A stretch of DNA of 29,873 nucleotides. Origin: Gammaproteobacteria bacterium. Lineage in GTDB: Bacteria > Pseudomonadota > Gammaproteobacteria > DATFLG01. Made by a program: the position numbers and the translations under genes. Positions 19,668 to 29,873 of this stretch are shown piece after piece; position 1 is the first letter of the stretch; each line of letters begins with the position of its first letter. The DNA lies in the NCBI GenBank assembly GCA_035266965.1, contig DATFML010000361.1, positions 1 to 29,873 on the forward strand, in the 5' to 3' direction. The notes under the pieces are model-generated. The model was not told the DNA's origin. It worked only from the letters and a program-made list of their open reading frames with translations, and did not search any database.

Positions 19668-21287
19668 CTAGACCGGCGGCACCAGAGGTTTGAAGCGCGC
19701 ATCGCCGTCCCTGGCGATCTGGGGTACCAGGTCCACCTCCCAGGTGAGGTAGCCCTGCATGGCGGCGGGGTCCGCTTCCGGGTGCTCGTAGGGCTTGTAC
19801 CACAGGTCGTCCGCTTCGCAGGTGGGCCGCTCCATGCCGGCGGCGGTGGGCAGGCCTGCGCCAAACCAGGCACGGGTGCCGCCTTCCAGGACCTGGACGG
19901 CCACGTCGGGCCGCGCCGCCTGTGCGTCGCCGGCGGTCAGTCGGGCGAGCAGGGCATCCGGGGATGTCACTACCAGAGAGTCCATCGGCGGCATCACCGC
20001 CAGCGCCTGCTGCAGGCGTGCCCGCACGCCCCACCAGGCCCCGGGTATATGTCCGGCCTGGTACTCTTTGCTGGTGGCTACATCCAGCACGGCCGTGCTG
20101 CCGTCAGCCAGGGCACGCTGCAGCGCTCCGGCGTCGACCGTGGCGACGGCTTCCAGGGCCGGTGCCGGTGTCGGAACGGGTCCCTGTACCAGCCTTTGAT
20201 CGCCAATCCCTCCGGCCAGGACATAGACCTCCTGCCAACCCAGCTGCCGCAGCCAGGAGGCGGTCATCAAGGCGCGCACCTCCGTATCGTCCACCAGCAC
20301 CAGGCGGGCATTCAGCACCCCGACGTACTCGTCGGTGGCCTGCACGAGCTGTCCCCCCGGCGCGCTGCGGCTGCCGGGCAGGTGACCGGCCTCGAATTCC
20401 TCGGGGCTGCGCACATCGAACACGAAGGTCGTACGGCGCGGGGATTCGGCCTGCCATGCGGCCAGTTCCGTCCGATCGACATTTTCCACCCCGGCCCGGC
20501 GGGCGACATTGCGCGCGGCGGCGAGCGCTCGGGCTCGTGTCTGCGGTGAAGGGGGCGGAGCGGCTCGTTGTGCGCCGTGCTCCAGCTCGAAGCCTGCCAG
20601 GCGCCAGCCCATGGTGCCGCCCTTGAGGGCGGCCACCGGGTTGGGAATGCCCGCATTGATCAGGGACTGGGCGCCGATGATGCTGCGGGTACGCCCGGCG
20701 CAGTTCACCACCACCAGCGTGCGGGGGTCGGGGGCCAGTTCCCGGACCCGGTAGGCCAGCTCGGCGCCCGGGGTGTCGATGCCGCCGGGAATGTGCATGC
20801 GCCGGTACTCCTCCATGGGCCGGGCGTCGAGAACCACCAGCGGATCGCCGGCGTCCAGCCGGGCCTTGAGCTCTTTGGGGGTGAGCAAAGGTGTATGGCA
20901 GGTCTGTTCGACGATTTCCCCGAACGCCTTGCTGGGCACGTTGACTCCGGAGAACAGCTCGAAGCCGGCGGCCCGCCAGCCCTCGATGCCCCGTTCGAGG
21001 ACCGCCACGTCGCTGTAGCCCAGCGCCTGCAGGCGGGCGGCCGCCCGCGGAGCCAGATCGTCTTCCCCGCCATCCACCACCACCGTGGGCGTGTTCCGCC
21101 GCGGTACCAGAGCCCCGATCAACAGCTCCAGGCGACTGAGGGGGAGGCAGGAGGCGAGCAACAGATGCCCGGCGGAGAAGGGGCCCTGTTCCCGTACGTC
21201 GATCAGCGCCAGTTCGCCGCCGGCGCGCAACAGATCCTTGAGCCCATTCGGGGTAATGCTTTGCGCGGCGGACTTCGGTCGGGCCAT
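19668..21287 (-). CDS. Four-domain rhodanese-like sulfurtransferase
   Basis: Four repeats starting 'LIDVRE', 'VLDARP', 'VFDVRS' and 'VLDVAT', with GH/MH-I/L-P/L-G/A signatures. An active-site-like 'VNCAGRTRS' is present in domain 2. Confidence 0.9.
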   Translation of the reverse strand: MARPKSAAQSITPNGLKDLLRAGGELALIDVREQGPFSAGHLLLASCLPLSRLELLIGALVPRRNTPTVVVDGGEDDLAPRAAARLQALGYSDVAVLERGIEGWRAAGFELFSGVNVPSKAFGEIVEQTCHTPLLTPKELKARLDAGDPLVVLDARPMEEYRRMHIPGGIDTPGAELAYRVRELAPDPRTLVVVNCAGRTRSIIGAQSLINAGIPNPVAALKGGTMGWRLAGFELEHGAQRAAPPPSPQTRARALAAARNVARRAGVENVDRTELAAWQAESPRRTTFVFDVRSPEEFEAGHLPGSRSAPGGQLVQATDEYVGVLNARLVLVDDTEVRALMTASWLRQLGWQEVYVLAGGIGDQRLVQGPVPTPAPALEAVATVDAGALQRALADGSTAVLDVATSKEYQAGHIPGAWWGVRARLQQALAVMPPMDSLVVTSPDALLARLTAGDAQAARPDVAVQVLEGGTRAWFGAGLPTAAGMERPTCEADDLWYKPYEHPEADPAAMQGYLTWEVDLVPQIARDGDARFKPLVPPV

Positions 21288-21561: not shown

Positions 21562-22197
21562 GTGACAGAACCCGGCCCCAACGTCCGCCAACGCCTTATC
21601 GAGGCGGCCATGGGCGTGTTCGCCGAAAAGGGCTATTCCCGTGCGTCGACGCGGGAAATCTGCCGGCTGGCAGGGGCCAACGCGGCCGCGATCCATTACT
21701 ACTTCGGCGACAAGGCGACCCTGTACCGGGAGGTGTTTCGACCTCCTGAATACGTTACCGAGGTCCCGGAAGCACTCAGCGCGCCGGACTCGACGCTGCG
21801 CGAAGGTCTGGAGGCTTTCTTCAGGCCACTGACCAGGCTGTTGACCGAATCCTGCATGGCGCCGCACCAGCACATGCTGCTGGTCCGCGAGCAGGTCCAG
21901 CCCACCGGGCTGTTGAACGAGCGGCGGGTGGATTTCTTCCGCCCTCGCCACGAGCAGGTATGCCGGTTCCTGTGTCGGCACTGCGGCGCCGCGGAGCCCG
22001 ATGAGGCGATCGAACAACTCGCCATCAGCCTGGCCGGCATGGCACTGGTGTTTTTCATGAAGCGCGACTATGTGGAGGCTTTTGCCCCCGGCCTGTTGAG
22101 CGACGGCCCCGCCCTGGCGGCAACCCTGGAACGGCTGACCGACTACGGCGTCACCCTGGCGGAAGCCGAAGCCCGCAGGCGGCGGGCGGGCGGTTGA
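21562..22197 (+). CDS. TetR/AcrR-family regulator (CecR/YbiH-like C-terminus)
   Basis: HTH 'RQRLIEAAMGVFAEKGYSRASTREICRLAGANAAAIHYYFGDKATLYREV'; GTG start. Confidence 0.9.
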   Translation: MTEPGPNVRQRLIEAAMGVFAEKGYSRASTREICRLAGANAAAIHYYFGDKATLYREVFRPPEYVTEVPEALSAPDSTLREGLEAFFRPLTRLLTESCMAPHQHMLLVREQVQPTGLLNERRVDFFRPRHEQVCRFLCRHCGAAEPDEAIEQLAISLAGMALVFFMKRDYVEAFAPGLLSDGPALAATLERLTDYGVTLAEAEARRRRAGG

Positions 22198-22357
22198 AGT
22201 CGATCGGCGGCCGATGATGATCAGCGGCGCGAAATACAACAACTGCGTGGCCGTCTATGACGGCCCTGTGATGAATTGGGGCGGTAGGCGGACTGTGGCA
22301 GGCGCTGCCGGTGCCGAAACCGTCGTCCCGGTGGAACACTCCTGAGGAGCTCAGCTC

Positions 22358-23491
22358 ATGGCTTCGCGCAAGACCCGTCTTATCCGACGCATCGTGATCA
22401 TGCTGTTGTTCGTGGGCATCGTCTACGGCGGGGCGATCGGATTCAACCGATTCGTCGGCTCCATGATCCGCAAGGCCATGGCCTCGGCGCCGCCTCCCAC
22501 CGTCAGTGTTTCCGTCGCCAAAGCCCAAACCCACACATGGCACCAGCGGCTGCACGCGGTGGCCAGCCTCAAGGCCGTCCAGGGCACGACCCTCACCACC
22601 CAGACCGCCGGCACCGTGATCGGACTGCATTTCCATTCCGGGCAGGACGTCAAGGCCGGCACCCTGCTGGTGCAGCTCAACGACAACGTGGCGCGTGCCC
22701 GGTTGGCCGCCGACAAGGCCAAGTTGCTCAACGCGCGCCAGCAACTGCAGCGCCAGCGCAAGCTCTATACCAGGCAGGCCACCAGCCAATCCCAGTTGCA
22801 ATCGGCGGAGGCGGGCTTCGGAGAAGCCCAGGCGGCCGTGCAGGCCGATGAGGCGGCGCTCACCAATCTGCAGGTGCGAGCGCCCTTCACCGGTCACCTG
22901 GGCATACGTCAGGTGAGCCTCGGTCAGTATGTCTCGCCCGGCACCAGCGTCGTCGATATCCATCAGTGGAAGCCTCTGCTGGTGGAGTTTCAGATCCCCC
23001 AACGGGACCAGGCGCGCATCGCCGTGGGTAACAGCGTGAAGCTGACGGTCACGGGCATCGAAGGGCACACCTTCCAGGGCAAGATCACCTCGCTGGGGTC
23101 GTCGCTGAACAACGGCACCCGCAGCCTGGGGGTGCAGGCCACGGTTCCCAACAGCGACCGCCGGCTGCGTCCCGGCATGTTCGGAGAAGTCACGGTGCGG
23201 CTGGCGGCCCAGAACAAGGTGGTCGCGGTGCCGCAGACCGCCATTTCCTACAGCACCTATGGCCAGTACGTCTACGTCATCGAGCACACCAAGAAGGGCA
23301 CTGTCGCTCAGCAGCGTGTGGTACAGACCGGCAGCCGGCGCGACGCACTGATCGCCGTGAGCCAGGGCCTGAAAGCAGGCGAGGAAGTGGTGACCGCGGG
23401 CCAGGTCAATCTGTATTCGGGAGCCCACGTAAAAATCAAACCGCCGTCGAAAGCCCTCAGTGAAGCGGGCGCACAGCAGCCGGGGAGCTGA
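22358..23491 (+). CDS. RND efflux periplasmic adaptor (membrane fusion protein)
   Basis: GAGGAG RBS, N-terminal TM helix, 'GQDVKAGTLLVQLND', hairpin coiled coil, 'RAPFTGHLGIRQVSLGQYVSPG', 'LRPGMF', 'VVTAGQ'. Confidence 0.95.
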   Translation: MASRKTRLIRRIVIMLLFVGIVYGGAIGFNRFVGSMIRKAMASAPPPTVSVSVAKAQTHTWHQRLHAVASLKAVQGTTLTTQTAGTVIGLHFHSGQDVKAGTLLVQLNDNVARARLAADKAKLLNARQQLQRQRKLYTRQATSQSQLQSAEAGFGEAQAAVQADEAALTNLQVRAPFTGHLGIRQVSLGQYVSPGTSVVDIHQWKPLLVEFQIPQRDQARIAVGNSVKLTVTGIEGHTFQGKITSLGSSLNNGTRSLGVQATVPNSDRRLRPGMFGEVTVRLAAQNKVVAVPQTAISYSTYGQYVYVIEHTKKGTVAQQRVVQTGSRRDALIAVSQGLKAGEEVVTAGQVNLYSGAHVKIKPPSKALSEAGAQQPGS

Positions 23492-23494
23492 GTC

Positions 23495-26400
23495 ATGGCC
23501 AAGCATCTGACCAACTCCCGTTGGACGGACCTGTTCGTCCGCCGGCCGGTGCTGGCCGTCACGCTGGCGACGGTGGTGGTGGTACTCGGCGCTTTCGGCA
23601 TCAGCAAGATGACCATCCGGGAGTATCCCAAGCTCACCACCACGGTGATCACGGTGGGCACCTCTTACCCGGGCGCCAGTCCGCAGACCGTGCAGAGCTA
23701 CATCACCCAGCCGCTGAGCCGGGTGCTGGGCAGCGTGCCGCATCTCGATTACATGACCTCCAGCAGCAGCCAGGGGACCTCCACGGTTACGCTGTACATG
23801 AAGCTCAACGCCAATTCCGAAGAGGCGCTGACCAACACCCTGACCCAGATCAAGCAGGTCGAGAGCCTGCTGCCCAAGAACAGCTTTCCGCCGGTGGTGA
23901 ATTCCTCCTCGGGCAGCCGCACGGCGCTGATGTACATTGCCTTTTCCAGTCCCGGCGGGCAGATGACCATCCCGCAGATCGTCGACTACGTGGTGCGCAA
24001 CGCCCAGCCGCTGCTGCAGACGGTGTCGGGGGTTTCCCAGGCCCAGGTGGTGCCGGTGGGCGCCTCGGGGGGCAACGGCAACAACCAGGCGGTGCGGGTC
24101 TGGCTCAATCCCCAGGAGATGGCCGCCCGGGGCATCACCCCCGCCGATGTGGAGAAAGCGCTGGCTTCCCAGAACGTGGTGGCGGCCACCGGCAAGACCG
24201 AGGGCAATCTGATTTCCGTGCCCCTGACCAGCAACATGGAGATGACGTCCGCCAAGGATTTCCGCAAGCTGGTGGTGAAGACGGTGAACGGCACGCCCAT
24301 CTACCTGCAGGACGTGGCCAGGGTGGAGATCGGCGCCGAAAGCTACGTGTCCAAGTTCTACTTCGACGGTCACCCCGCGGTGGCCATCGGCATCCAGACC
24401 ACGCCTTCGGCCAACGACCTGCAGGTGGCCCTGGGGGTCAATCGCAAGATTCAGGAGCTCAAGAAGCGCCTGCCGCCCGGCATGGAGGTGGGTCTGCCCT
24501 ACAACGGCGCCAACTTCATCCACACCGCCATCGACGAGGTGGCCACCACCATCGGCATCACCCTCGGCGTGGTGGTGCTGGTGATCTTCCTGTTTCTGGG
24601 TTCGCTCCGGGCGCTGGTCGTGCCCCTGGTGGCCATCCCTCTGTCCCTGGTGGGCGCCGGGTTCTTCATGTACATGGTGGGGTATTCGCTCAATCTGCTG
24701 ACCCTGCTGGCATTCGTGCTCGCCATCGGGCTGGTGGTGGACGATGCCATCGTGATGGTGGAGAACGTCCACCGGCACGTGGACGAGGGCAGATCCGGGT
24801 TCCAGGCGGCGGTCATTTCGGCGCGGGAGCTCACCCTGCCCATCATCGTGATGTCCACCACCCTGATTGCGGTCTACCTGCCGGTGGCGTTCGGCGGCGG
24901 GCTGACCGGTGCCCTGTTCACGGAATTCGCGATGACCATCGTGTTCGCCGTCATGCTGTCCATGGTGATCGCCCTGACCCTGTCGCCCATGCTCAGCGGG
25001 CGGATCCTGCGCTCGACGCCGGCCCATGGACTGAACCACTTCCTGGAAGTGGGCTTCCAGCGCTTCCGGGCGCTGTTCGACCGCTCGCTGCACAGCTTCC
25101 TTGAGTTCCCGGTGGTGGGTACCGTGTTCATCATCGCCACCTTCGTGGCCTTGTATTTCCTGTTCGCCGGGGTGCGTCACGAGCTCTCGCCGCCCCAGAA
25201 CAGCGGCGTGGTGTTCTCGTTGGGCACCGCACCGCCCAATGCGGCACCCAACTACGTGGACGCCTTGGGCCAGCAGGTGCTGAAGACCTTCGGCCACTTC
25301 CCCCAGAAGGATCACACCTTCCTGGTGACCGGCTTCAGCCCCAACGGCGGCGGCAACAACAGCCTGATCGGGGGCATGACGCTCAAGCCGTTCAGTGAGC
25401 GCAAGCAGACCGCGAGCGATCTCAAGCCGAAGATCCAGAAGGACCTCGGTGGGGTCACGGGCCTTAAGGCCGCGGCCTTCACGCCGCCGCCGCTGCCCGG
25501 TTCGGCGGGCCTGTTTCCCATCGATTTCGTGATCACCTCATCGAGACCCTATGCGGACCTGGATCACGTGGCCAATGCGGTGCTGGCCAAGGCGCGGGAA
25601 AGCCATCGGTTCCTGTTTCTGCAGAAGGATCTGAAAATCGACCAGCCCCAGTACGAGCTGGTGGTCAACCGCAAGTTGGCGGCGGATCTGGGCATCACCA
25701 TGGATCAGGTGGCGGCGGACCTGCAACCCATGCTGTCGGGCGCCTATGTCAATCGATTCACCATGGACGGCTATGCCTATCAGGTGATCCCCCAGACGCC
25801 GGACATGTTCCGTGCCGATCCCAGCGATCTGGAGCAGTATCACATCAAGGCCGCCGACGGGAGACTCATTCCCCTGTCCACGCTGGTGTCGTTCAAGACC
25901 CGGGTGATTCCGCAGGATCTGCCCCAGTTCGACCGCATCAACAGCGTGACCATCCAGGGCGTGCCGTTCCCCGGCGTGTCCCAGGGGGATGCCCTGCAGT
26001 ATCTGGCCCAGACCACCCACGACATAGCGCCGGATGCCGCCATCAACTACGGCGGTTCGTCGCGCCAGTTCATGGAACAGGGCAACACCTTCATGGTGTC
26101 GGTGGTGCTGGCTTTGGTGCTCATCTATCTGCTGCTGTCGGCGCAGTTCAACAGCTTCCGGGATGCGATGATCGTCATGTTCGCGGTGCCCATGTCGGCG
26201 GCGGGCGCGCTACTGTTCATGGCCCTGGGCATGGCCACCCTGAACATCTACACCGAGATCGCCCTCATCACGCTGATCGGCCTGATCACCAAGCAGGGCA
26301 TCCTGGTGGTGCAGTTCGCCAACAACCTTCAGGAGAGCGAGGGGCTGGGTCTGCGTGAGGCGGTGGAGAAGGCCACCAGCATTCGCCTGCGGCCCATCCT

Positions 26401-26647
26401 CATGACCACCCTGGCCATGGTCCTGGGCGTGATTCCCCTGATCACCGCCACGGGCTCCGGCGCACCGCCGCGCAACGAGCTCGGCATCGTCATCGCCAGC
26501 GGCCTGGGCATCGGCGCTCTGTTCAGCCTCTACATCGTGCCGGTGATGTACCTGTACCTGTCCAAGGACCACGCCAGGATCGCCGCCAACGAGGCGGCGC
26601 AGCAGCGGGATCTGGACGCCCTGGCTGCCGAGGAGGGTGGCAGCTAG
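23495..26647 (+). CDS. RND efflux permease (AcrB/AcrD/AcrF family, HAE1-like)
   Basis: 1050 aa. 'FVRRPVLA', 'IREYP', TM4 'IGLVVDDAIVMVENVHR', TM10 'GLITKQGIL', TM11 'RLRPILMTT'. Confidence 0.96.
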   Translation: MAKHLTNSRWTDLFVRRPVLAVTLATVVVVLGAFGISKMTIREYPKLTTTVITVGTSYPGASPQTVQSYITQPLSRVLGSVPHLDYMTSSSSQGTSTVTLYMKLNANSEEALTNTLTQIKQVESLLPKNSFPPVVNSSSGSRTALMYIAFSSPGGQMTIPQIVDYVVRNAQPLLQTVSGVSQAQVVPVGASGGNGNNQAVRVWLNPQEMAARGITPADVEKALASQNVVAATGKTEGNLISVPLTSNMEMTSAKDFRKLVVKTVNGTPIYLQDVARVEIGAESYVSKFYFDGHPAVAIGIQTTPSANDLQVALGVNRKIQELKKRLPPGMEVGLPYNGANFIHTAIDEVATTIGITLGVVVLVIFLFLGSLRALVVPLVAIPLSLVGAGFFMYMVGYSLNLLTLLAFVLAIGLVVDDAIVMVENVHRHVDEGRSGFQAAVISARELTLPIIVMSTTLIAVYLPVAFGGGLTGALFTEFAMTIVFAVMLSMVIALTLSPMLSGRILRSTPAHGLNHFLEVGFQRFRALFDRSLHSFLEFPVVGTVFIIATFVALYFLFAGVRHELSPPQNSGVVFSLGTAPPNAAPNYVDALGQQVLKTFGHFPQKDHTFLVTGFSPNGGGNNSLIGGMTLKPFSERKQTASDLKPKIQKDLGGVTGLKAAAFTPPPLPGSAGLFPIDFVITSSRPYADLDHVANAVLAKARESHRFLFLQKDLKIDQPQYELVVNRKLAADLGITMDQVAADLQPMLSGAYVNRFTMDGYAYQVIPQTPDMFRADPSDLEQYHIKAADGRLIPLSTLVSFKTRVIPQDLPQFDRINSVTIQGVPFPGVSQGDALQYLAQTTHDIAPDAAINYGGSSRQFMEQGNTFMVSVVLALVLIYLLLSAQFNSFRDAMIVMFAVPMSAAGALLFMALGMATLNIYTEIALITLIGLITKQGILVVQFANNLQESEGLGLREAVEKATSIRLRPILMTTLAMVLGVIPLITATGSGAPPRNELGIVIASGLGIGALFSLYIVPVMYLYLSKDHARIAANEAAQQRDLDALAAEEGGS

Positions 26648-26700: not shown

Positions 26701-26734
26701 ACTGGGCGCTCCGGCTTCGCTGCCGGCTCACAGT

Positions 26735-26765
26735 CCGCCGGACGTTACTGTCCGGCGGGTTTTTC
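26735..26765 (+). terminator. Intrinsic terminator of the efflux operon
   Basis: CCGCCGGAC-GTTACT-GTCCGGCGG (perfect 9-bp stem) followed by GTTTTT. Confidence 0.8.
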
Positions 26766-26922
26766 TCGGGTATTCGGATTGCGCTGTGTTTTGGCAGTCC
26801 CGATTCTCGTGGCACTGGTCGCGCGGACAGTGTGTTTCCGCCTTCTCCGAAGTATATGTAGGGAGATCGTTCATATCCCCCCCACCACCGGGCCTGAACG
26901 CACACCATTGGTGAAATACTAA

Positions 26923-28152
26923 TCAGAACGCAGGGAGGTCCGGCATCGCGCGCGCGCCAATGCCGACGCCCTCGATTTCAACAAGCCATTCAGGTCGGCA
27001 CACAGCCCCGTGCACAGCAATCACGGGCACTTTCGGAAGACGCTCCTGAAGGTGTGCGCGAATCCAGCGCCCATCAGCCGGATCCCGGAGATAGACGATC
27101 AGGTACATCATGTCATCGAGGTTCGCTGAATCGGCTCGCAGCAGGGCCTCCACATTACCGAGTGCAACCGCAAGCTGCTTTTCGACGTCACCAGGATGCA
27201 CCACGTGCCCGAGGCTATCGATGCTGGCAGTCCCGGATATGAAGTACTGCGAGCGGTCAGCGAATGCGACACGTGTGGCGCGTTCGAAGGTGACGTTGTA
27301 GTCGTTTGTGGCACAAAGGTGCTCGAAGTCGTTGAGATAGGCTATCTGATCGGGGCGGACGTCAAGGACCGAATATGCATCCATGGCGACCAGATCCAGG
27401 CGATGCGCGCAGGCGCCTTGAATTCCTGTGCTGGCAATGTAATGCGTGTCCGCTGTAAGGCCCTGCGCGGCGAAAAGGTCGGTCCGACGATGCACCATGT
27501 CCCGGTAGAACACATCGACGTCCTTCAGATACAGCCAGGTACGGACGCAGTGGTCACGTAGAGTACCCCCTTGGCTCTCAAGTGCTCTAATGAGATCGTT
27601 AAATACCATCTCTGTCTGTGTCCCTGACTCGGTGGGCGCTCCGTCCTCAGCTGCCGCACATAGTCCGGTGCTCCAGAGATGTCGTATACCGCTCTTCTCG
27701 ACGAGGGTGTGCCGCGGCGAAAGGCACCTCTTCAGAATAGGCTGCGGTCCGGTGACATGATAGGCCAGCAGAGCGATCTTTGCGCCCGATACCGGAGGCT
27801 GCTGCACTATGGATACGGCGACAGGGCCCGCAGTTTGATCCTCGACCAGTGGACTTTGACGCACCGTAGCGACCTGATTGATGGTGTCGCTCAGGAAAAT
27901 GCGTCGAAAGATAGCGCTTTCTGCGGGTAGCTCAAGCCCCAGGAGGGCCCTATGATAGCGCTCGCAAACCTCGCGTACCTGGTCCTCAAAAGTGCGGTCA
28001 GGTGATGCCTCAATCGATAGAAAATGCTCAGCGCCACTGGAGGTCCCGTGGAAGCTGCGGGTCGTGGCGCCAGACGCGGGGTCCCGTGCAGTGAAATGGC
28101 CAGCCAGTGGTGTGGCTCTCTGGGGTGCGGCGAGGAAAGCCGCGCGGCTCAC
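26923..28152 (-). CDS. Rid/YjgF-superfamily protein, chorismatase (FkbO/Hyg5)-like multi-domain type
   Basis: 'CVRTWLYLKDVD..Y', 'IASTGIQG', 'VTFERAT', 'FISGTASID..GHVVHPGDVEKQ', 'VYLRD', 'VCRPEWLVEIEG'. The GTG start overlaps the upstream stop (GTGA). Confidence 0.8.
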   Translation of the reverse strand: MSRAAFLAAPQRATPLAGHFTARDPASGATTRSFHGTSSGAEHFLSIEASPDRTFEDQVREVCERYHRALLGLELPAESAIFRRIFLSDTINQVATVRQSPLVEDQTAGPVAVSIVQQPPVSGAKIALLAYHVTGPQPILKRCLSPRHTLVEKSGIRHLWSTGLCAAAEDGAPTESGTQTEMVFNDLIRALESQGGTLRDHCVRTWLYLKDVDVFYRDMVHRRTDLFAAQGLTADTHYIASTGIQGACAHRLDLVAMDAYSVLDVRPDQIAYLNDFEHLCATNDYNVTFERATRVAFADRSQYFISGTASIDSLGHVVHPGDVEKQLAVALGNVEALLRADSANLDDMMYLIVYLRDPADGRWIRAHLQERLPKVPVIAVHGAVCRPEWLVEIEGVGIGARAMPDLPAF

Positions 28153-28832
28153 AACGGCTGCACGCTAATCGGTTGGTCCGGAAACGCGAGTTGGTCGCGG
28201 TCGCGCCAATCTGATCGAACATAATTGATTTCCAGAAGGCGGCGCACACCCACGATGGGCCGCGGCTCGAAACCGTGCCAGGTATCCGGACCAGGTACGA
28301 ATATGACGGCCGAATTGAATTCCGCAGAACTCCGGCCGACCCAGCGCCGTTCGGAATCGTAGATGTCGGTTCCCCACCCGCTCGCTTCAGGGCCGGTGCA
28401 AAGGTACAGGACCATGGAGAAGAGCTTCTCAGGAATGTCGCGATGAGGTTCAAGCCAGGCACCGTCGGTGTCCTGGATGTATTCCAACCGCAAGTAGGCT
28501 TCGTCGGTAATAATTCCGAGGGTATCTGCAAGCTGTTGCGCCACCAGCGGACTCTGCAGTGCGCTCGCAAAGGCTTCGCAAACGGGAAACCGTGCACGCA
28601 GCGTCGGCGTGAAGAAGGTCCGTTTGCTGTTGTCGACGTCCCGCACTCCTCGGCAATCTCCGACGACCGGTGGAGCGATCGGCAGCATCAATACAGCAGC
28701 CGCGAGCGACTCGGGCAGTACTTCGTTGAGTATCCAATGGCGGTATGGCCGGGAGTTACACCGAGCGGCTTGCAGCGCACCACAGAAATGAGCCGCCACG
28801 ATATTTGATGCGGGCACAGCCGGGAAATTCAA
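28149..28832 (-). CDS. 2OG-Fe(II) oxygenase (copy B)
   Basis: HxD 'LEPHRD', distal His 'TWHGF', Arg 'GVRR', 'SMVLYL', 'GTDIYD'. The TTG at 28832 has an AAGGAG RBS; an alternative GTG start lies at 28862. Confidence 0.85.
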   Translation of the reverse strand: MNFPAVPASNIVAAHFCGALQAARCNSRPYRHWILNEVLPESLAAAVLMLPIAPPVVGDCRGVRDVDNSKRTFFTPTLRARFPVCEAFASALQSPLVAQQLADTLGIITDEAYLRLEYIQDTDGAWLEPHRDIPEKLFSMVLYLCTGPEASGWGTDIYDSERRWVGRSSAEFNSAVIFVPGPDTWHGFEPRPIVGVRRLLEINYVRSDWRDRDQLAFPDQPISVQPL

Positions 28833-28869
28833 GCGAGCGCTCCTTCGCGGCAATATCGGCACCGATCAC

Positions 28870-29559
28870 TCAACGTGGAGCCCATTCGATAATCTTGCGT
28901 ACAAACGGTACGGACTTCGCGGCCGCGCTTATCCGATGACGGACATATTCGCGGCGCACGTATGAGGGCGAATCCACGTAGCAGAGTTGCAGACTCATGC
29001 GCCGCCCTTTCTGAGGCAGGAAGCCATGCCAGGAATGGTCGCAGACTCGAAACATCAGCATGCGTCCGAATTCCGGGGCAAACTCAAACGCACAGTCATC
29101 CCTGTCAGCGCTACGCAACACACGGAGACGCCCGCGTTCATATGGCCATTCGCGACTGAAACCTACCAGGACAGTGATGATCTTGTGTTTGGAGTCCGGG
29201 TGAGCGTACCCCTCATTATAATGCCCGGTAGTATTCCCCATCATGAGAATCAAGGGTGGGTTAGCGCTGAGATCGGTGTCGAACTTCCTCTCTACCAGGT
29301 GACGAAACCGATCGCTGAGCAATTCCTTGACTGCTGTTCCGAAGCTGGGACCGTAGCGCAGGCTCGGCAAACCATAACTACCGCGGTCCGGTATGGTAGG
29401 CGCGTCCGCGAGCACGGTGTTCTTATGTTGGGGACCTATTGCCTGATCTACGAAAGCATAATCGTAGGGATCGTGCTGCAGGGCGGCGGCGGCGATAGCG
29501 CCCTCGTCGAACAACTCCAAGGGGCGAGATCCGTCGCCATTGCCGCTGGGGTATGTCAT
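28870..29559 (-). CDS. 2OG-Fe(II) oxygenase (copy A)
   Basis: GGGAGG RBS, 'PYDYAFV', 'LRYGPSF', HxD 'AHPDSKHKIITVLV', 'GRLRVLRS', 'SWHGF', 'GRRMSLQL'. Confidence 0.85.
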   Translation of the reverse strand: MTYPSGNGDGSRPLELFDEGAIAAAALQHDPYDYAFVDQAIGPQHKNTVLADAPTIPDRGSYGLPSLRYGPSFGTAVKELLSDRFRHLVERKFDTDLSANPPLILMMGNTTGHYNEGYAHPDSKHKIITVLVGFSREWPYERGRLRVLRSADRDDCAFEFAPEFGRMLMFRVCDHSWHGFLPQKGRRMSLQLCYVDSPSYVRREYVRHRISAAAKSVPFVRKIIEWAPR

Positions 29560-29873
29560 TCCTGACCTCCCATTCAGTCCGATTATCAAGTCGCGTAATT
29601 TACTGGAAACGGTTCTTGCAAGCATTGACCTGAATCAATACTTTCAATCGCACGCTGTTCCCAGCCGGCAGAAGGATCTGGGCTGTTGGAACGCCGGTCG
29701 GAACCCGCGACGGCCAGGCGATAGAACAATTACCCCGGGCGTGCACATGACACTGGGTAATGAAGTTCCGGAATACAGCTTCAGCACCGCTTCGATGCTG
29801 ACCAATCAGGCGCGCTTGCTCCCGACGCTATGTCTGTCGATTCCGGCCACTGTCGTGTCGTGTGAGCGGGGGC

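Follow-up and report, generated by a model that had tools for sequence, protein, structure and literature searches.

A compact three-gene cassette lies near one end of contig DATFML010000361.1 of a gammaproteobacterial genome (GCA_035266965.1), and its description as a mobile unit switched by an FNR-type regulator is well supported. The window analyzed here is that entire contig (C361 in our numbering), 29,873 nt ending at position 29873, from a metagenome-assembled genome (MAG) of 506 contigs that is 88% complete. The cassette encodes two predicted Fe(II)/2-oxoglutarate (2OG) oxygenases, A and B, and a chorismatase-fold protein, R, behind a conserved FNR/FixK-type box. We read it as a low-oxygen pathway for a chorismate-derived small molecule, probably serving ubiquinone synthesis, and give this reading as a whole a probability of roughly 0.4. 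The parts of the reading differ in strength: a conserved, low-oxygen-regulated cassette is very likely, chorismate-derived small-molecule chemistry stands at even odds, and a specific role in ubiquinone biosynthesis is tentative and on balance unlikely. The features are as follows.

26911..29662, minus strand: transferable unit of box, promoter, A, B and R (limits of homology to the copy in a congener, locus L004)
29625..29638, minus strand: FNR/FixK-type box TTGATTCAGGTCAA, an exact TTGA-N6-TCAA read in the sequence
29597..29602, minus strand: candidate -10 hexamer TAAATT, which would place the box centre near -41.5
28870..29559, minus strand: gene A, predicted PolD/PasI-like Fe(II)/2OG oxygenase, 229 aa
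28149..28832, minus strand: gene B, predicted divergent Fe(II)/2OG oxygenase, 227 aa, or 237 aa with a GTG start at 28862
26923..28152, minus strand: gene R, chorismatase-fold protein with three fused Rid-like domains, 409 aa

Gene A is preceded by a GGGAGG ribosome-binding site 6 nt 5′ of its ATG at 29559, and an alternative longer open reading frame starting at 29625 would run across the promoter. The TTG start of B has AAGGAG 7 nt upstream and agrees with the MSFP and MTYP starts of homologues. The gap between A and B is 7 or 37 nt depending on the start of B, with the Shine-Dalgarno sequence favouring 37, and the GTG start of R overlaps the TGA stop of B as GTGA. An initial annotation, made by a model from the letters and a list of open reading frames, had described three same-strand genes with this spacing, and its figures were exact.

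A relative of R is encoded in at least 596 species genomes (596 of the 600 pattern matches listed, one genome per species). Neighbourhoods were compared in a sample of 84 loci, extending up to 10 kb to either side. Among the 80 best loci and the assemblies, genes A and B adjoin R in nearly every locus long enough to show it, in the orders R-A-B (46 loci), A-B-R (21) and B′A′...R (3). In most loci across Alpha-, Beta- and Gammaproteobacteria, identity is 63-93% for A, 56-87% for B and 53-64% for R, and the congener copy reaches about 87-90%. The genes beyond the trio differ from locus to locus, such that the only constant genes are the three themselves, and no nonribosomal peptide synthetase (NRPS), polyketide synthase (PKS), AMP-ligase or acyltransferase recurs beside them in the 84 loci. 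The grouping of the three genes proposed in the initial annotation is therefore borne out by their co-occurrence across loci, while its view of the trio as a tailoring module on a scaffold cluster has to be given up, since the trio is self-contained and no scaffold enzyme recurs. That annotation knew of no described pathway with this trio, and none was found in the searchable literature; the trio is absent from what can be searched on chorismatases, ubiquinone and FNR regulons.

The genes that do recur nearby are ubiT (SCP2), ubiU and/or ubiV (U32), in 13 of the 84 loci; hemN is a neighbour in 8 loci and an fnr/crp-like gene in 7. FixJ/NarL-type regulators, an ATP-binding cassette (ABC) exporter and a fabA/ketoacyl synthase (KAS) set are also recurrent. 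Four loci (L039, L041, L042 and L055) have a conserved gene set within 6 kb 5′ of the trio that encodes a FabA-like dehydratase, a short-chain reductase, a zinc alcohol dehydrogenase and two ketoacyl synthases, and that recalls the way in which unsaturated fatty acids are made without oxygen. Neither the box nor the links to ubiT-ubiU-ubiV, hemN and fnr-like genes had been noted in the initial annotation, and together they move the reading from secondary metabolism toward low-oxygen physiology.

Counted within 250 nt 5′ of the first gene, an exact TTGA-N6-TCAA was found upstream of 53 of 84 trio transcription units (63%), compared to 5.3% of 876 control genes from the same loci, with a background rate of 0.027 per 330 nt. 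Its consensus, TTGA(T/C)C(T/C)AG(A/G)TCAA, is of the FNR/FixK/Anr type, and the units that lack it are mostly those in which R sits behind ubiTUV within a longer operon. The congener copy L004 keeps the box as TTGACTCAGGTCAA and also conserves the -10 region, GTAAATTACGC. The conserved FNR/FixK box thus travels with the cassette. A box centre near -41.5, as the TAAATT hexamer would give, is the spacing of class II FNR promoters in E. coli; a consensus scan preferred an alternative promoter, TTTCCA-16-GATAAT at 29609-29582, over TAAATT. The genome has a candidate regulator on contig C243, a 241-aa Crp/Fnr protein with Cys17, Cys20, Cys26 and Cys119 and a recognition helix reading ETVSR. With this Cys-x2-Cys-x5-Cys...Cys cluster and E--SR helix, it is by its residues a true FNR, and activation of the cassette by FNR at low oxygen would be the expected consequence. 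A look-up of RNA sequencing runs containing this DNA returned none. Two loci of Hyphomicrobiales (L039 and L041, at about 9.9 kb, 5′ of R) carry GTGATCCAGATCAC or GTGATCTAGGTCAC in place of TTGAT...ATCAA; the outer bases of the palindrome are changed, which suggests a different regulator of the Crp/Fnr family in that lineage.

The C-terminal domain of R matches PF01042. In its AlphaFold2 (AF2) model (pLDDT 71, with residues 200-290 poor), R is a single chain with the full chorismatase fold, a pseudo-trimer of three Rid/YjgF-like domains. A VIA-align comparison with FkbO (4bps) aligned 298 of 331 residues at Z 20.7, and the Hyg5-type structures 5ag3/5a3k gave Z 20.6. The best-scoring unrelated folds reach about Z 10, and for single RidA domains the value is about Z 8-9. 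The motifs RTW-Y, F-I-S-G-T-A-S and V-C-R-x-x-W-L-V-E-I-E-G do not vary within the R family and align with their counterparts in FkbO and Hyg5. Within the last of these, Glu392 (W-L-V-E-I-E-G) aligns with L-L-V-E-I-E-G of both 4bps and 5ag3 and is invariant in 20 homologues. In the characterized enzymes the enolpyruvyl methylene is protonated by a catalytic Glu, Glu334 in Hyg5 and Glu338 in FkbO, and class CH-II has a Gly, Gly, Cys signature (Gly164, Gly231 and Cys318 of Nat-Hyg5) (PMC7170507). Gly307 (S-G-T-A-S) and Cys385 (V-C-R) of R align with the Gly and Cys of 5ag3, positions at which FkbO has Ala in both cases, and the first signature Gly falls in a region of R that is not alignable by sequence. 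The R family also has invariant residues of its own, namely five Cys and several His.

Compared to the known chorismatases FkbO (CH-I), Hyg5 (CH-II, a 3-hydroxybenzoate synthase) and XanB2 (CH-III), R has the same single-chain fold of three Rid domains over about 300 residues and the common motifs RTW-Y, (F/V)-S-G-T-A-S and C-R-x-x-(W/L)-L-V-E-I-E-G, including the Glu and two residues, Gly and Cys, of the CH-II signature. It differs from them in an identity of only 15-16%, in being about 45-60 residues longer, and in its setting, as the chorismatases belong to polyketide, xanthomonadin or rapamycin-type clusters whereas R stands in an FNR-box operon with two oxygenases. The model and these alignments suggest that R is probably a chorismatase-fold enzyme that acts like a chorismatase but lies outside TIGR04444.

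Gene A matches PF13640 with 32.2 bits, above the cut-off of 27, and B with 22.3 bits, below it. A profile comparison (hhalign) of B with the A family gave a probability of 96% over 170 columns, and by this measure the two genes are distantly related paralogues. The His-x-Asp...His triad is kept in A: across 31 homologues H120 and H178 do not vary, and D122 is replaced once, by Asn. R187-x-S189 is conserved in these homologues as well; reading R187-M-S189 in A and lying nine residues after H178, it would fit the Arg-x-Ser for the C5 carboxylate of 2OG, which is expected about 9-10 residues after the distal His. In B, H130-x-D132, H186 and R197/R198 are invariant in 26 homologues, so the triad is kept here too; R197-R198 follow H186 at a distance of eleven to twelve residues, and there is no Ser. 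The closest structures to the AF2 model of A (pLDDT 86.7) are PasI (9ei6/9ei7) and PolD (9blq), at TM-scores of 0.67-0.79, and PolD and PasI are also the best PDB sequence matches for both A and B. PolD, from the polyoxin pathway of Streptomyces cacaoi, and PasI, from Photorhabdus asymbiotica, have the same prolyl-hydroxylase-like Fe(II)/2OG fold in about 210-235 aa. They were solved with 2OG or succinate, and PasI with a small molecule, a phosphorylated nucleoside acid. Identity to the trio proteins is about 19-20%, and unlike PolD and PasI the trio is not surrounded by nucleoside-antibiotic genes (enolpyruvyl transferase, radical-SAM PolH, ligase), so the substrate is not expected to be the same. 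The initial annotation had proposed that the trio acts on a small molecule or lipid, and the nearest structures of A together with the chorismatase fold of R agree with small-molecule enzymes. ESM Atlas features for the trio proteins read only '2OG oxygenase' or 'NikM family'. Additional A-like genes occur in two loci: L007 (6830-9859) has a third oxygenase just 5′ of R, which is A-like (38% identity to A) and is followed by a trypsin-like protease and an FHA-domain protein, and L039 (3039-3689) has an extra copy that is 31% identical.

The trio touches or is fused to ubiT-ubiU-ubiV in 13 of the 84 loci, in at least five arrangements, while by chance a locus would be expected within 10 kb of a single ubiTUV locus in well under 1% of genomes. 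In L033, L063 and L069, ubiT-ubiU-ubiV-R is divergent from A-B across one shared box; in L038 and L047 the order is ubiU-ubiV-ubiT-R-A-B; in L062, L071 and L028, ubiV-ubiU-ubiT is divergent from R-A-B; L076 has ubiTUV and the trio convergent, and in L019 and L082 the two are merely nearby. Nearly always, the trio gene adjoining ubiT is R. In L047 (6417-7421) a radical-SAM gene with a Radical_SAM_C domain (YhcC-like) lies directly 5′ of ubiU-ubiV-ubiT-R-A-B. The window itself does not have the trio beside ubiTUV, and the U32 gene of this genome is on another contig, C51. The UbiT-UbiU-UbiV pathway (PMC6747719, PMC10470549, PMC10990095) and the trio have in common their phylum range, the type of upstream box and the chorismate branch point, and the oxygen donor of UbiU/V is prephenate, one step from chorismate (PMC10990095). 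They differ in chemistry: UbiU and UbiV are Fe-S U32 proteins working without O2, whereas A and B have the facial triad of O2-using enzymes. The repeated fusion or adjacency to ubiTUV, with R next to ubiT, makes a role in ubiquinone synthesis the most likely one for the cassette.

The proposed mechanism is as follows. An FNR-type regulator would switch on the box-A-B-R cassette when oxygen is scarce. R may then protonate and cleave the enolpyruvyl ether of chorismate or a very close analogue, which would release pyruvate and a hydroxybenzoate or a dihydroxycyclohexadiene carboxylate, and A and B may oxidize that ring or a derivative with residual O2. The product would serve ubiquinone synthesis at low oxygen, for example by supplying and pre-hydroxylating the aromatic head group; alternatively, the cassette might draw on the chorismate/prephenate pool on which the U32 hydroxylases depend. 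The gene anatomy, the conserved trio, the box, the folds and motifs, the mobility and the ubiTUV linkage are observed, whereas activation by FNR, substrate, order of reactions and product are predicted. A more specific version, which we consider unlikely, is that the trio is a third head-group route for the microoxic range between the flavin/Coq7 hydroxylases and UbiU/V. R would deliver the ring from chorismate or handle the pool of organic oxygen donors, high-affinity A and B would install the ring hydroxyls, and the whole would travel as one FNR-switched cassette among Alpha-, Beta- and Gammaproteobacteria.

Several observations weigh against a chorismate pathway that serves ubiquinone. R scores 62.6 bits against TIGR04444 (FkbO/Hyg5 chorismatase), where the cut-off is 325, and the match covers residues 203-396 only. 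PF21168, the model for the N-domain of FkbO/Hyg5, was not found in R at E ≤ 0.1, and in sequence the C-terminal domain is no closer to chorismatases than it is to plain RidA. In other phyla, divergent R-family members are found in unrelated contexts that include neither A nor B. On the ubiquinone side, 5 of 26 trio genomes have no U32 pair, two of them being chromosome-level assemblies, and the genome of the window already encodes UbiC, two tandem UbiH-type flavin hydroxylases and Coq7. Aerobic hydroxylase sets are also normal in the 26 carriers tested (a flavin hydroxylase plus Coq7, or two flavin hydroxylases), and these generally complete sets leave no obvious gap for the cassette to fill. 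Two O2-requiring enzymes under a low-oxygen switch are a paradox unless their affinity for O2 is high. The linkage to ubiTUV could also reflect common FNR control and not a common pathway, as hemN, fnr-like and fabA-type genes are neighbours as well.

Some narrower roles were discarded on this evidence. Strict dependence on UbiU/V does not agree with the five carriers lacking the U32 pair, and replacement of missing aerobic ubiquinone hydroxylases does not agree with carriers that have the usual sets. R would do the same job as UbiC and XanB2 if it makes 4-hydroxybenzoate, although the fold of UbiC is unrelated to that of R, but a plain UbiC replacement was rejected because UbiC is present in this genome and in the other beta- and gammaproteobacterial carriers. 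A UbiC match is missing in 20 trio genomes, mostly labelled alphaproteobacterial. This fits a gap recognized for that class, many members of which lack both UbiC and XanB2 and must obtain 4-hydroxybenzoate in some other way (PMC12423496). Since most Alphaproteobacteria also lack the trio, the carriers without UbiC prove nothing by themselves.

The rival that survives best keeps the chorismate chemistry and drops ubiquinone. The trio would make a soluble hydroxylated aromatic (a di- or trihydroxybenzoate or a hydroquinone) that acts as a redox shuttle, as an iron(III) reductant or chelator, or as a low-oxygen signal. Phenazines offer an analogy, as they are chorismate-derived redox shuttles. 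The chorismatase-like motifs and two oxygenases of small-molecule type fit this product equally well, the cassette stands alone in most loci (about 85% are not tied to ubiTUV), and among its carriers are Acidiphilium, Sulfuriferula, Thiobacillaceae and Roseiarcus, which come from peat, bog and comparable material. We nevertheless consider it unlikely: no exporter, regulator or receptor recurs beside the cassette, and co-regulation alone would hardly account for the repeated operon fusions of R with ubiT, ubiU and ubiV, which take several independent forms.

A second rival concerns R itself, which could be a one-chain RidA-like imine/enamine hydrolase clearing a reactive product of the oxidation of an amino acid or amine by A and B. 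In NCBI and JGI records the family goes by 'Rid family hydrolase' or 'enamine deaminase RidA', and the best PDB sequence match of the R family profile is a plain RidA, PH0854, at 51 bits. In the profile alignment, Arg386 of R (V-C-R-P-E-W) falls on the Arg of the SRLPKD segment of PH0854, which we take to be the RidA catalytic Arg. An equivalent Arg is also present in FkbO and Hyg5, however, so Arg386 does not discriminate between RidA and chorismatase. RidA proteins are homotrimers of about 125-aa subunits, whereas R is a single chain of three domains, and with TIGR00004 it scores 26.5 bits where the cut-off is 106. Over all 360 residues the fold matches chorismatases at Z 20.7, compared to about Z 8-9 for single RidA domains, and RTW-Y and SGTAS in the middle and last domains are chorismatase motifs. 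Taken together, this makes a RidA-like activity improbable.

R has thousands of homologues, and 486 clusters at 50% identity score E ≤ 1e-30. The chorismatase-fold family is much wider than the proteobacterial trio. Distant members (379-478 bits to the family profile) stand alone in L089, an Elusimicrobiota MAG, and in L092 and L093, next to radical-SAM genes, a polysaccharide gene cluster or trmB. A wider partner for such divergent members, from Elusimicrobiota and unassigned metagenome contigs, was sought and only radical-SAM genes, polysaccharide genes or trmB came up, with no A or B.

A third possibility is that A and/or B read oxygen as PHD/Tpa1-type protein hydroxylases, acting within a hypoxia-sensing circuit on a conserved protein that might be R. 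After PolD and PasI, the next structural matches of A are PHD2 (hypoxia-inducible factor (HIF) prolyl hydroxylase 2) and the ribosomal prolyl hydroxylases Tpa1/OGFOD1, and A is unusually conserved, at 63-93% identity across three classes, in an operon wired to oxygen. The PHD matches are weaker, though, with TM-scores of 0.45-0.53 compared to 0.67-0.79 for the small-molecule enzymes, the cassette has no DNA-binding or signalling partner, and two different oxygenases with a metabolic-fold enzyme resemble a pathway. We regard this possibility as quite improbable.

The transferable unit was defined by comparison with the congener. Window positions 26911-29662 are 87.4% identical over 2752 nt to L004 8404-11155, and the flanks are unrelated on both sides; homology ends abruptly, 24 nt 5′ of the box at one edge and 12 nt beyond the R stop codon at the other. 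Contigs of G028, a genome from the same genus as that of the window, match L004 at 99.9% identity, and the two are the same organism; L004 has the cassette at a different site, between unrelated genes. The cassette is absent from a third congener, which is 100% complete, and from 37 genomes sampled from other families of the class. In both congeners the efflux operon and its terminator are followed by a gene that in this genome is on contig C380, indicating that the insertion site is 'empty' in both. The efflux gene is 91% and 86% identical between congeners, so that the 87% of the cassette fits either an old presence in the genus with relocation and loss, or separate acquisitions. The R tree mixes classes with strong support, with Sulfuriferula and a Burkholderiales MAG among alphaproteobacterial MAGs and Thiobacillaceae nested in Alphaproteobacteria. 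No obvious direct or inverted repeats were seen at the junctions by eye, and no integrase or transposase was seen within the cassette. At the other edge, 211 unique nt (29663-29873) lie beyond the cassette, so the insertion relative to the congeners exceeds it, and C380 begins (1-467) with the 5′ end of a minus-strand lipoprotein gene. That the trio is the tail of a larger NRPS, PKS or lipid cluster past the contig end is very improbable: the contig does stop 211 nt past the cassette and the insertion has at least this one further gene, the lipoprotein start on C380, but no scaffold enzyme recurs within 10 kb on either side in the 84 loci, and homology to the congener ends sharply at the edges given above.

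The A-B-R block has a G+C content (GC) of 58.5%, compared to 64.8% for the remainder of the window and 65.4% for the genome (standard deviation 2.3% in 2.7-kb windows), and falls in the 0.3rd percentile of the 2.7-kb windows of the genome. GC at third codon positions (GC3) is 0.64 in A, B and R and 0.84-0.90 in the adjacent efflux genes. Averaged over 76 related loci, the GC of the trio is lower than that of its flanks by just 0.9 points, so the shift is a property of this pairing of host and cassette and not of the genes as such. The initial annotation had reported a lower GC from spot counts; the shift is real but less extreme than those counts implied. Its proposal of horizontal acquisition agrees with the foreign composition, the patchy occurrence in the genus and the site that is empty in two congeners.

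Ubiquinone synthesis is known with O2-dependent and O2-independent sets of hydroxylases, and how cells cope in between is a gap; the source of the aromatic precursor in many Alphaproteobacteria is a second. A compact, widespread and mobile operon that is wired to an oxygen sensor and repeatedly fused to ubiTUV is a testable candidate for filling a gap of this kind, and cultured carriers exist in Sulfuriferula sp. GW1, S. multivorans and Acidiphilium iwatense. Even if the cassette is unrelated to quinones, it defines an uncharacterized chorismatase-fold family of 486 clusters at 50% identity and would point to a new product derived from chorismate and formed specifically under low-oxygen conditions.

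The rest of the window lies outside the cassette. The resistance-nodulation-division (RND) efflux gene ends at 26647 and is followed by a hairpin with a T-run at 26728-26764 that is conserved in congeners; the 3′ end of R (26923) converges on it, and the block does begin just past the efflux terminator, as first described. A 539-aa protein with four rhodanese domains (19668-21287) lies upstream of the TetR-regulated RND efflux operon (21562-26647), and both are ordinary chromosomal genes of high GC3. Roughly the first 140 nt are a multicopy repeat. The genome has at least 15 further copies of it at 94-99% identity, many of which coincide with contig ends, and it is probably the end of an insertion sequence (IS) or miniature inverted-repeat transposable element (MITE) that fragments the assembly. 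A relative of this repeat is found 3′ of the efflux operon in another congener, G027 (L099 4703-4811).

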